Position numbers and translations under genes: made by a program
In this document: piece after piece, positions 26,054-30,651 of the stretch
How the letters are laid out: each line of letters opens with the position of its first letter
Numbering within the stretch: position 1 is the first letter of the stretch
From: an uncultured Candidatus Poseidoniales archaeon
GTDB lineage: Archaea > Thermoplasmatota > Poseidoniia > Poseidoniales > Poseidoniaceae
Reading direction: 5' to 3'
Assembly (NCBI GenBank): GCA_905182715.1
Contig: CAJJCP010000013.1
Location: 11,990 to 75,989, forward strand
DNA length: 64,000 bases
Notes under the pieces: model-generated
What the model was told of the DNA's origin: nothing
What the model saw: the letters and a program-made list of their open reading frames with translations, nothing else
The model's database searches: none

Positions 26054-27901
26054 ATGGCTGACGAAACCAAAGAAGAAATTGCAATGGCCGAATGTGGGGC
26101 TTGTAGAGCCATCGTCCCGCTCAATTCCGATAACTGCCCCGAATGTGATATTTCCTTTTCGGGTGTATCTGACGAATCACTCGGCGAATGTGGAGCATGC
26201 CAAGGACTCGTGCCTTTAGATTCTACCAAATGCACCCATTGCGGTACAATATTCGTCGCTGATGATGTTGTTGATGTCTTGAGGAAATGGCTTGCTGAGA
26301 CCGGTATTACAATCCCGATTCTCTTCAAGAAATTCGATAAAGATGGAGACGGGCAAATTGATTCTGCTGAACTTAAAGCTGGACTTCTTAGCCTTAAGTT
26401 GGCAGACTTGCCACCTTCACAAGTTGAGCGCTTAATCGACACCATCGATGAAGACGGCGATGGTCAAATCGATCTTGCTGAATTACACGAAACAATTACT
26501 GGCGTGTCATATTCTAAAGTTGCCAAAGAAGAAGACACCAACATCTGATGCCGCTGGCGAAGAAGAAGATGAAGAGAGAAGATGAAGAAGAAGAAGGAGA
26601 AGAAGAGAGTCTTCTGAGGCCGACATGGAAACCGATGAAGAAGAAATTTCGGAAACCGAGACTGAAGATGTTGATGAGGACGATGATGAGTCTGAATTCG
26701 AAGATGAAGAAATAGAAAACACTGTTGAATCTGAAGATGAAGAAACAGAAGACACTGATGAATCCGAAGACTCTGATCTTGATGACATGGATGATGTCCT
26801 CGATGATATCGAAGATGAAATGGATGAAGATGATGAGATGGAGGCAATTGATGTACCTAAACCACTTTCAATCTTGCACCTTATATCCGATGCAATGGAT
26901 GATTCTGGTGATTCACCAAACAAATTCTTTAATTCACTTGACAAAGATGGTGATGGAAATGTTTCTGTGGAGGAATTCACTGAGGCTATCGAAGGGCTCA
27001 TTGATGAAGAAGTCACTTCCAAAGATATTGAATCCTTCCTTGTGAATGCAGATGACGATGGTGATGGTGCCATCGATATTATCGAATTCGTCACTGCTCT
27101 CGAATCATTAGAGGATGCTGACGAAGCCGTCGATGATGATTCAAGACTTTCGAAAAAGGTGGAGAAACCTTTCCCTACCGAAATGCAGCGAAAAATGATG
27201 GGCAAACAATGGAATGATATCGTTTGGCCACTGATTCATTTGGCTTTTGGCCTCTTCATTGCCGTATGGCTCATCAATGGACTTGGTGGTATTGGACCAC
27301 TTGGAGTTGACGGCTCAGGTGGAAACATAGCTCTCGAAACTGCTTATGAAATAGGGTTTGAAGATTGGAATGAAGGAGACATTTATCCTTGCGATGCTTC
27401 AGTTCAAGTCGGAGAATGTAAAAACTCACTCACACCATTCTCTGGATCTGCATCATCGATGCCTGCTGGATTCTATTGGGATGGGATTTTCTTGATGGCT
27501 CTTGGAGCCATCGGACTCATTGCTTCACTCGGCATCCATCTTGCTATTGTCCCTGGATGGCGAGCACGTGCTAAAGCAATGAAAGAAGTCGAAGATGATA
27601 CTGATGAAGCGCGCTCAGAAGATTCGAATGAAGAGGACGAAGACGGAATCGATGAAGATGATTCCGAGGACGAATGAATTTACTTGAAGGATTAGAAGAT
27701 GAAGGCGATGATGAAGATGAAGATGGAGAGGGATCTGATGATGAAATTGATATCGGATCTCATGTAGGAATCTCACTCGAAGATGAAGAAGTGTTTGGAG
27801 TTATCATCGAATTTGACGATGATGAAGAGACCGTTACTATCAAAGAAGATGGTACTGGAGACCTGGTCACCGGATATCAAGAAGACATGTTTGTGGAGTG
27901 A
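26054..27901 (+). CDS. Double Zn-ribbon / four EF-hand / acidic membrane protein; split by apparent indels into ORFs 26033-26548, 26625-27677 and 27674-27901
   Basis: CxxC pairs, EF loops DKDGDGQIDSAE, DEDGDGQIDLAE, DKDGDGNVSVEE and DDDGDGAIDIIE, and two TM helices. The breaks fall in GAA/GAT-rich tracts. Confidence 0.7.
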
Positions 27902-28359: not shown

Positions 28360-28435
28360 TGGTGGGTTCGGAGAGAATTGAACTCTCGATCTTCGCCATG
28401 TCAAGGCGACGTCATAACCCCTAGACCACGAACCC
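28360..28435 (-). tRNA. tRNA-Val(GAC), CCA encoded
   Basis: Minus strand reads GGGTTCGTGGTCTAGGGGTTATGACGTCGCCTTGACATGGCGAAGATCGAGAGTTCAATTCTCTCCGAACCCACCA, forming a cloverleaf with GAC anticodon. TTTAAT box about 30 bp upstream. Confidence 0.96.
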
Positions 28436-28646: not shown

Positions 28647-28868
28647 GAGAATCGTTCTTCCCACAGAGTCGTTCGTCTTAGATTCTTCGCAGAAGACATT
28701 CTTTTCGCCAGCAGTTGAAAATCTTAGGTTCTGGACACTCCGACCCCCTACTTTGCGTGGATATTTGCCAATATGTGTGCTCCTGATGAGCATGTTTGAT
28801 GAAAAAGAGGCTACTGAGGCGCTATCTCGAATTACCCCCGCAACGTAAAACCGGTCCCATTTACGCCA

Positions 28869-28896
28869 ATGTCGTATAACATACATTATGCGACAT
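28869..28896. other. Candidate dif / Xer site-specific recombination site (11-6-11 bp)
   Basis: ATGTCGTATAA-CATACA-TTATGCGACAT. The arms are inverted with one mismatch and the site is intergenic. Confidence 0.7.
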
Positions 28897-28912: not shown

Positions 28913-29257
28913 TCATTGGTTTTCAGTAACGCTGGCGAGGTTCAGTGCAGAAAGCGGAGATTCGAACATTCCAACAAGTGGTGGCCCTCCAATAACGCCT
29001 TCTAAACCACCATCTTTAGAATCAAGTTTTTCAACGATCGATTTGGAAATGCGCTTCCAAGACTTTTTGTCTACAAATACCGAATGGACGAGAAATAATC
29101 CTTGACCATCAGTTGATTGTGCAATCCAAGCAGCGAGACAACCTGATTGTCTGCGTTTATATTCTTGGCGTACGTCGAGCATTCTTTTGAATCGAGCTTC
29201 TTTTCCAGGTGCACCCGAACAGACTACAGTTTCAATAAGCACAGTTTTGATTTTCAT
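28913..29257 (-). CDS. Dimeric alpha-beta barrel (ABM-like) protein
   Basis: PGKEARF...QSGCL...FLVHSVF....W pattern; GGGAGAGGGG SD upstream. Confidence 0.6.
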   Translation of the reverse strand: MKIKTVLIETVVCSGAPGKEARFKRMLDVRQEYKRRQSGCLAAWIAQSTDGQGLFLVHSVFVDKKSWKRISKSIVEKLDSKDGGLEGVIGGPPLVGMFESPLSALNLASVTENQ

Positions 29258-29317
29258 TCTTTCCCCTCTCCCAAGTAAGTAGTAATAAATAGCATTCAAG
29301 AATCAATTAAATATAAA

Positions 29318-30593
29318 TCAATGATGGATAAGTTTTCCATTCAAGCAGGTTGAAACGAATGGAGTATCAGATGGTTGCATACACCATGCCTCCCAATAAG
29401 GGGCGTTCAGTATATTGAAATTCGCAACAGCGCCTTCTTCAATACGTCCATGTATTTTTCCAGTTGGATGCGGAGAGGTTTCGGAAGGGTTGCGCGTAGC
29501 AGCAACGAGAGCTGCAAGAGGATGTACCGAACAACGCTGGGCGAGAAGTGAGCCTACAAATGGTAAGCTGATTGTTTTACAATTCGGATTGAAATCAGTT
29601 GCGATACTCCAAGTGAAGTTATTATCAATCGCATCGTTAAAGTCAGGCCATTGAGCACCCATTGCATATGGAGTGCCGGGTAAGAAACCCGTATTGACGC
29701 CTGCCGCCTCCATCTTCATTCTTGTATCATGGCCCGTATAGTGCGCATGATCGGCAGTTATCACTTTGAGTTCTGAAGCCAATCCTCCCCCTCCACCATC
29801 TGCAAACTCATCAATATGCATTCGCAGGTCAAGCCCTCCTGCACGTGATGCTTTGAGGATATCTTCAGATTGTTCTAACGAGAACCAGCCGGGTTCACAA
29901 AACACATCAGCTGAACGAGCAATTCCTTGTTCCAACACTCTTGGCAATTGTTCGGATAATATTTGTTCGACATATGCATCGGCAGTCATTCCAGTTGGCG
30001 ATATCGTGTGCACCGAGCCATGTTAAATCCAGTGAAGGGAGGTGATTCATAGACTGCAGTTGTGATGCAATGCGTAACAATCTCAATTCCGATTCAGTTG
30101 AAAGCCCGTATCCGCTCTTTGCCTCGAGATGAGTCGTACCGGAACGAAGAGCTGAACGCATCCGCTCATAACCCAGTTGCAAAAGGCGTTCGTCTGACAC
30201 TTGAGATGTCGAACGGACAGTATCTTGAATCCCACCACCCAATTCCGAAATGTCCTTGTAAGATTTTCCTTCATGCCTCCATGAAAGTTCACGTGAACGG
30301 TCGCCTGCCCACAATAAATGCGTATGACCGTCGACCAAGCCTGGGATAACTGCGTTACCATGTAATGAAAGAACAGTAACTTCTGATGTACTGTCCGGTT
30401 TGTCACTTGCGGCACCATATTCATCTTGGAGTTCTGCGGAAGATGCAATTTTCTCAATCGTATCACCGAGGACAACAATACCCATTCCCGGTGCATCGAT
30501 TAATCCGTCAGAATCGAACAGAGAATGCCCTTGCAATGGGCCTTTTCCAGATAAATGCGCCATTGGTCCAACATCAAGGAAGACTGTGCGCAT
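29318..30593 (-). CDS. hutI: Imidazolonepropionase, frameshifted near 29998 (probable assembly indel)
   Basis: PGLVDGHTH, GGGI..TV, EAKSGYGL and LGAH in one frame; ADVFCE, HIDEF, ADH and ATDFNP in the next frame. Confidence 0.9.
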
Positions 30594-30651
30594 ATCTACT
30601 GCTAGAGGCTTAGGGTTGAAGAACAATGGCTCTCTGGCTTAAACGATTGAG

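Follow-up and report, generated by a model that had tools for sequence, protein, structure and literature searches.

We identified, in the 64-kb stretch of DNA analysed here (hereafter the window), a 28-bp element that is probably the chromosomal dif site of a Marine Group II (Poseidoniaceae) archaeon and the predicted target of its XerA recombinase. Neither the shape of the element nor its identity to known dif sites is sufficient for this assignment; it is drawn instead from the combination of a single-copy core, a narrow conservation footprint, a homologous element in the sister family, the presence of XerA and a flip of compositional skew at the site. The role in dimer resolution put forward in the original prediction is likewise favoured by the single copy, the conservation, the lone XerA and the location at the skew switch.

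Sequence and geometry of the element

The element at 28869–28896 (ATGTCGTATAA-CATACA-TTATGCGACAT; Table 1) has the 28-bp 11-6-11 layout first described for it: 10 of the 11 arm positions are complementary, T7 against G22 being the sole exception, and the inner ends of the arms read ATAA-N6-TTAT. Searches tolerating up to three mismatches returned this single match in the window, and it is the sole match at up to seven substitutions in the organism's own genome (G000; 1.78 Mb in 36 contigs, 73% complete). The palindromic shape by itself is no rarer than chance: the window contains two palindromes of the 11-6-11 type that pair at 10/11 positions or more, against a shuffle mean of 0.59, at least one such palindrome occurs in 47% of 200 window shuffles, and G000 holds 25 of them genome-wide. 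Among these genomic palindromes, the ATAA-N6-TTAT inner ends are found in the one at 28869–28896 only. The noted likeness of the minus strand to E. coli dif was reproduced, with 19/28 positions identical, and 16/17 over positions 5–21, to the 28-mer of strain MG1655 at NC_000913.3 1,590,750–1,590,777, which we take to be dif, a label absent from the annotation of that record. The weight initially laid on this likeness has to be given up, as the same level of identity arises by chance elsewhere in G000, where 4 places score 19/28 against the E. coli 28-mer and 9 score 19/28 against the dif site of Thermococcus kodakarensis.

Table 1. Coordinates of the predicted dif site and of the features around it in the window
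Feature	Position	Strand	Remarks
Left arm (half-site) ATGTCGTATAA	28869..28879		conserved stretch is positions 3-11, GTCGYATAA
6-bp spacer CATACA	28880..28885		central region, presumed strand-exchange region
Right arm TTATGCGACAT	28886..28896		conserved stretch is positions 18-26, TTATRCGAC
ABM-domain gene, 128-aa ORF	28913..29299	-	PF03992, 28.5 bits; stop codon 16 bp from site
DUF5679-like zinc-ribbon gene, 50 aa	28494..28646	-	PF18930, 22.3 bits, below cut-off 27; start codon ~220 bp from site
Flank island, ..CAGTA..N..TTT run, minus strand CGCCTCAGTAGCCTCTTTTTC	28801..28821	-	~50 bp from site towards zinc-ribbon gene
Second flank island, C5-7/G5-7 run with ACTT, GACCCCCTACTTTGCG	28742..28757		either orientation among relatives
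tRNA-Val(GAC)	28360..28435	-	434 bp from site, downstream of zinc-ribbon gene; conserved neighbourhood, separate from site

Conservation across the family and the order

With up to three mismatches allowed, the 28-mer is present in exactly one copy in 14 of 24 congeneric genomes and in none of 16 genomes from two other families. The exact core CGYATAA-N6-TTATRCG extends the distribution to 66 of 74 Poseidoniaceae genomes, with one occurrence in each; it is found in 0/74 genomes of the sister family and in one of the two genomes of a small second family, and a reversed-pattern control, run on 75 family genomes including G000, matched in one. A looser search for the core, allowing 3 mismatches, is noisy, and the control pattern matches as well. 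The genomes from which the exact core is missing (8/74 in the family and 21/74 in the sister family, each with its own core) are all incomplete, and the single-scaffold genome G041 carries one copy of the site. The expectation of one conserved intergenic copy per genome among relatives was thus borne out, whereas a scattering over many promoters in the manner of a transcription-factor site, which the original prediction had raised as a check, was not seen: there is no second copy in G000 or in the 66 core-bearing family genomes.

The footprint of conservation is sharply bounded. Across 15 congeners, and also across genera, the 28-mer is near-invariant and both of its flanks are unalignable; contigs from public sequencing runs of other strains align to 28865–28895 only. 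Within the arms of 59 distinct family genomes, where positions 5–11 are partly set by the search pattern and positions 3–4 are free, G3 is kept in 59/59 and T4 in 56/59, position 7 is C in 48 and T in 11, and ATAA is invariant; the right arm has G in 34 and A in 25 at position 22, A25 in 53/59, C26 in 59/59 and A27 in 55/59. The spacer comes in 17 types among the same 59 genomes. The pair 7/22 is always Y/R, with all three combinations found, and arm changes are mirrored, one genus having altered T4 and A25 together (GGCG...CGCC). This coupling of a free spacer to mirrored arm changes is the pattern to be expected of a site that would be read by two copies of one protein. The proposed fit between near-symmetric arms and one homomeric XerA gains further from the half-site variants GTCGTATAA and GTCGCATAA, each of which also forms fully symmetric sites in other genera.

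The corresponding site of the sister family was located through the synteny of the zinc-ribbon gene, with no motif used. In three of five sister-family genomes 11-6-11 palindromes lie beside this gene, and the core that they share, CYGATAA-N6-TTATCRG, occurs in 53 of 74 sister-family genomes, exactly once in 51 of them, and in 1 of 74 Poseidoniaceae genomes. Since a homologous element is thus found at the same gene in the sister family, the element is order-wide, with arms that are family-specific and symmetrically changed. The sister-family bins G246 and G270 each hold two exact cores on different contigs, for which a strain mixture or a second site are both possible.

With the same flanking genes as reference, the asymmetric spacer and the T7/G22 mismatch were also seen to point in opposite directions in different clades (28869–28896 versus L007, L012, L015, L246, L255 and L221). 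Read in the direction of the genes, the spacer is TGTATG in 16 genomes of the present genus and of the CATACA type in 5 others of the genus; the latter orientation is seen in 27 of 28 genomes of another genus, in which G120 has flipped back. These distributions mean that the site has been inverted in place, independently, at least two times.

A single XerA recombinase encoded away from the site

A profile search of G000 recovered a sole PF00589 match, at 26660–27754 of contig G000:C14. Hence, the statement that the window holds no recombinase gene stands, and the suggested search for xerA led to one XerA-type protein, the only tyrosine recombinase of the genome, encoded elsewhere. Among proteins of solved structure it is closest to XerA of Thermoplasma acidophilum (5hxy; 6.7e-37) and of Pyrococcus abyssi (4a8e; 4.4e-30), and in an alignment to both it retains RVSE, GKGDKDR, HVLRH, GHSS and Y, which we take to be the catalytic motifs. 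Orthologs of this XerA are present, nearly always singly, in 147 of 151 genomes of the order, and among the matches listed those of most sister-family genomes are 50–57% identical to it. The gene is unlinked to the site, the two being 1.2 Mb apart in G041.

Location at a switch of strand asymmetry

Raw GC and AT skews were discarded as measures of chromosomal position, being confounded by gene orientation; hence, third-codon A/T skew was computed separately for the genes on each strand in four contigs (G000 C13, G043 C1, G003 C1 and G041). In all four of them, genes with the coding strand running towards the site are T3-rich by 0.06–0.13 and opposite-strand genes are not. The weighted change-point falls at +2.5 kb from the site in G000, +2.5 kb in G043, +2.0 kb in G003 and -49.7 kb in G041, contigs that come from one genus, have collinear neighbourhoods and are therefore not independent; in a permutation test run on three of the contigs, 0 of 300 permutations per contig equalled the fit of the real data. 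Over the whole 2.06-Mb scaffold of G041, with the site at 1.269 Mb, the corrected skew resolves into two domains with switches at 1.20–1.24 Mb and 0.12–0.35 Mb, about half a chromosome apart, of which the one near the site is sharp and the other fuzzy. The most skewed tetramers of this genome pick out the same poles (0.10–0.23 and 1.19–1.32 Mb). Comparison of the position with skew, another check proposed at the outset, therefore places the site at a switch of strand composition, within 2.5 kb of it in three of the four contigs.

Tetramer skews as used by Cortez et al. were also tried as a guide to polarity and set aside: GTTC and GTTG give opposite polarity in G041, and so the Thermococcales words do not transfer. 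Three genomes are collinear over +/-100 kb around the site, except for one inversion. The inverted segment is a block of ~53 kb in G041 (G041:C1, about 1,175,400–1,228,300) relative to G043 and G003, with its site-proximal breakpoint 41 kb from the site. That breakpoint lies close to the skew switch of G041, and the skew pattern is unlike that of a recent inversion.

The polarity of the switch is only moderately settled, with a terminus favoured roughly three to one over an origin. By convention, G and T are enriched on leading strands. In 4/4 contigs it is the T-rich strands that point to the site, as do the G-rich strands in G041; in the latter genome the replichore directed at the site holds 307 genes on the plus strand and 233 on the minus strand, and four of five highly expressed loci (the 16S rRNA, the L3 ribosomal protein gene, rpoB and an EF-1alpha-like gene, but not an EF-2-like gene) are co-directional with forks converging on the site. 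At third positions in G000 and G003, the strands pointing to the site are C-rich, the opposite of G041. The convention on leading-strand polarity itself partly goes back to the GTTG/GTTC result and, in the excerpts of the same report, a sharp skew switch in Thermococcales corresponds to the origin (PMC2958812).

The element could alternatively be part of a replication origin, with the switch at the site marking that origin and the palindrome binding an initiator. The presence of the switch within 2.5 kb of the site in three of four contigs, its being the sharper of the two in G041, and the sign of the third-position G/C skew in G000 and G003, which is opposite to that of a classical terminus, all speak for such an origin. 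Nevertheless, we consider it highly improbable, given that the T-rich strands, the G-rich strands and gene-strand bias of G041 and the four highly expressed loci fit convergence and not divergence of forks, that the sequence of the site is of the Xer type, and that neither repeated ORB-like boxes nor an A+T-rich unwinding stretch accompany it, the arms being just 6 bp apart. Moreover, no Orc1/Cdc6 gene lies within ~560 kb of the site in G041, where the two genes (701,157–702,248 and 1,829,565–1,830,659 on G041:C1) are 567 and 561 kb away, or within ~356 kb in the single-contig sister-family genome G039, where the site is at 978,388 and both orc genes are on one side of it, 356 and 455 kb away; the only weak match nearby is the proteasome ATPase PAN. 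No switch in the strand-corrected skew is seen at either Orc1/Cdc6 gene of G041, and hence these genes offer no internal calibration of polarity. With the orc genes off both switches, the replication origin of this lineage may lie away from them; a search of G041 for an origin-like gap found nothing convincing. The placement of the site almost exactly midway between the orc genes, which holds in G041 and fails in G039, was treated as chance.

The zinc-ribbon gene and other neighbours of the site

The site occupies an intergenic gap of ~260 bp, with a minus-strand order of ABM-domain gene, site, zinc-ribbon gene and tRNA-Val(GAC); the tRNA is the sole match of an Rfam search near the site. A homolog of the ABM gene ends 7–95 bp from the site in all family loci examined, and none adjoins it in the sister family. 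The one constant neighbour across the order is the zinc-ribbon gene, which lies 175–231 bp from the site in the family and, for 15 of 16 loci of the sister family, 126–242 bp from it; the flank on the opposite side varies. The encoded DUF5679 protein is basic and exactly 50 aa long in all 33 sequences from the two families, and their alignment has four invariant cysteines, 17 invariant columns and invariant NGRxR and SKI motifs, a constraint that is unusually strong for a protein for which a search of the Atlas returned the family name and nothing more.

Both flank islands (..CGCAGTA..CGTTT.. and the C/G run with ACTT) are kept in both families although the arms of the site differ, the CAGT of the island at 28801–28821 being invariant in 23 family and 14 sister-family loci. 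Candidate roles for these islands include a terminator, a promoter or 5′ leader, or a binding site for an accessory protein.

Further away from the site are genes for an amidohydrolase and Kae1. The former is represented in the window by two overlapping minus-strand ORFs, 29318–30013 and 29907–30626, both of which match amidohydrolase families; these apparently represent either a single frameshifted gene or an error of assembly, and an intact homolog of 347 aa is found in locus L202 at 84–1127. The same locus (L202, G052:C50) features, at 1189–2552, an inverted duplication of the amidohydrolase–ABM–site module around the zinc-ribbon gene and tRNA-Val. Here, a perfect consensus site, ATGTCGCATAA-TCAGGG-TTATGCGACAT, is located on the far side of tRNA-Val, where an ABM gene ends, and a degenerate inverted copy (9/11), 640 bp from it, lies upstream of the zinc-ribbon gene; the spacer of this copy is, save for one base, the reverse complement of that of the perfect site.

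Because the zinc-ribbon gene accompanies the site throughout the order, the main rival to the dif assignment is an operator, in which a protein that binds DNA as a dimer, and which may be the zinc-ribbon protein, would regulate that gene via the palindrome. The near-constant spacing between site and gene over two families whose other flanks differ, the basic character of the protein with its four invariant cysteines and 17 invariant columns among 33 sequences, and the mirrored changes of the arms are all in keeping with such an operator. We still judge it improbable. The site is ~220 bp from the start codon and ~190 bp beyond the likely promoter region, which is far for an archaeal operator. 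In G052 the perfect copy is split from the gene by tRNA-Val and the copy upstream of the gene has decayed, and in G026 the site is downstream of the zinc-ribbon gene. Such a palindrome is seen at 0 of 30 DUF5679 loci of other Thermoplasmatota, where any 11-6-11 palindrome at all occurs at 4 loci, these being GC-rich, three of them immediately downstream of the gene and the fourth at a distance of 1.5 kb. Furthermore, no recognisable regulator is found among the neighbours (the ABM enzyme, the DUF5679 protein, the amidohydrolase and Kae1), and an operator would leave both the Xer-type TAA-N6-TTA geometry and the position at the skew switch unexplained.

One RNA-library contig extends from the ABM 3′ end across the site and for 79 bases more, to 28790, just past the conserved T-run. 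The site may therefore be transcribed as part of the ABM 3′ end; DNA contamination of the library is possible, and the uncovered stretch 28670–28780 carries no evidential weight. A hairpin in RNA or DNA at this 3′ end, serving as a terminator, a stability element or a protein-binding stem-loop, would account for such a transcript, for the location of the site 16 bp past the ABM stop codon and for arm changes that preserve pairing. Its likelihood is very remote: the sequence of the stem itself, beyond its pairing, is invariant across genera; the commonest form in this genus has a C-A mismatch in mid-stem in the transcribed orientation; and the element persists in the sister family without the ABM gene. 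Likewise, the fold of the 3′ region has z = 0.18, its minimum-energy fold being no better than those of shuffles, a simple terminator scan does not flag it, and the contig itself comes from the kind of library that can carry contaminating DNA.

The original prediction had also entertained an Xer-exploited integration site as an alternative. In its strict form, this would be an attachment site (attB or IMEX target) used only by integrating mobile elements, with no part in dimer resolution. Though the proximity of a tRNA gene, the Xer-type geometry and the two cores on different contigs in some sister-family bins (G246 and G270) could be read in this way, we find it scarcely credible, as all 66 core-bearing family genomes have exactly one core, with no second core bracketing an insert in any of them. 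The duplication in G052 consists of inverted host genes and not of an insert, the +/-100 kb around the site are collinear in three genomes but for the one inversion, and no integrase is encoded nearby.

Comparison with characterized Xer systems

The dif assignment places the element alongside several characterized systems. In archaea, TAA-N(6-8)-TTA at the inner arm ends is, according to excerpts of a published study, the most conserved feature of dif, and the dif site of T. kodakarensis has been validated there as a XerA site by ChIP-seq (PMC11840125). The latter system resembles the present one in its 28-bp 11-6-11 layout, the TAA-N6-TTA motif, the single chromosomal site and the one XerA encoded elsewhere. 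The two sites are identical at 19/28 positions, and at 15/22 in the arms; no other place in the G041 genome matches T. kodakarensis dif as well as the site does (20/28), and the T. kodakarensis spacer TGTACC is also found in one Poseidoniaceae genus. They differ in the outer arm bases, in the nearly perfect symmetry of the present arms and in their setting, which is a gap of ~260 bp beside the zinc-ribbon gene here and a 1.9-kb gap between convergent genes in T. kodakarensis.

For P. abyssi, binding and recombination of dif by XerA have been demonstrated in vitro, with a single recombinase that acts independently of FtsK (PMC2958812). To the extent covered by the excerpted text of that report, the likeness extends to the architecture, to the prediction of the site by its conservation among relatives, to its location near a skew extreme and to the presence of conserved flanking sequences; the identity of the two sites is 13/28, with 12/22 in the arms. 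In the same excerpts, Thermococcales dif sites are situated 122–142 degrees from oriC at a broad skew optimum (PMC2958812), as against a strand-corrected switch no more than 2.5 kb from the site in three of four contigs here. T. acidophilum, a member of the same phylum, has the XerA that is the closest solved relative of the G000 recombinase. This archaeon is described, in the excerpts of PMC11840125, as having two sites that XerA binds, called dif1 and dif2, one of which is functional; by that description, the pair of a perfect and a degenerate site in G052 recalls the functional and non-functional pair of T. acidophilum, a likeness of description and not of bases.

The XerCD/dif system of E. 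coli shares the 28-bp 11-6-11 core and the location at a skew switch. It deploys two different recombinases on asymmetric arms, with activation by FtsK and KOPS, whereas here one recombinase would act on near-symmetric arms. Moreover, spacer orientation flips between Poseidoniales clades, and a direction-sensitive system like that of E. coli would not tolerate such flips.

Proposed mechanism and implications

We propose that one XerA monomer would bind each arm of 9–11 bp (GTCGYATAA / TTATRCGAC), and that the two sites on a chromosome dimer would then synapse as a XerA tetramer. Cutting and exchange of the strands would take place where the 6-bp spacer meets the arms, and this exchange would convert the chromosome dimer into monomers. 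As in other archaea, FtsK would not be involved. The skew switch at the site would correspond to the replication terminus.

It is also conceivable, though unlikely, that XerA does not act by itself at dif and that the DUF5679 protein together with the CAGT/T-run and C-run islands forms a "dif module" with it. In that case, by analogy to the role of FtsK in bacteria, the DUF5679 protein could set the timing or directionality of the reaction, or else could fix the meeting point of the forks. Such a module would explain why the switch falls so close to the site (within ~2.5 kb), a sharpness uncommon among archaea.

A literature search that covered the main text of open-access papers found no paper on dif or XerA in Poseidoniales or Marine Group II. 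The predicted dif site would belong to a known kind of system that has apparently not yet been described for this lineage. Several features go beyond a routine dif prediction, namely the kilobase-scale coincidence of the site with a mutational strand switch, the presence of an orc1/cdc6 gene at neither switch, the order-wide tight linkage to the DUF5679 gene with conserved flank islands, and the repeated reversals of the spacer against the genes on either side.

Marine Group II archaea, an uncultured group, are abundant in surface seawater, and we know of no experimental work on the replication and segregation of their chromosomes. For these organisms, the site would provide a single, sharply defined chromosomal landmark with family-specific arms, which may be used in orienting and checking assemblies, in placing the terminus in growth estimates from read depth, and as a short DNA substrate for heterologously expressed XerA.
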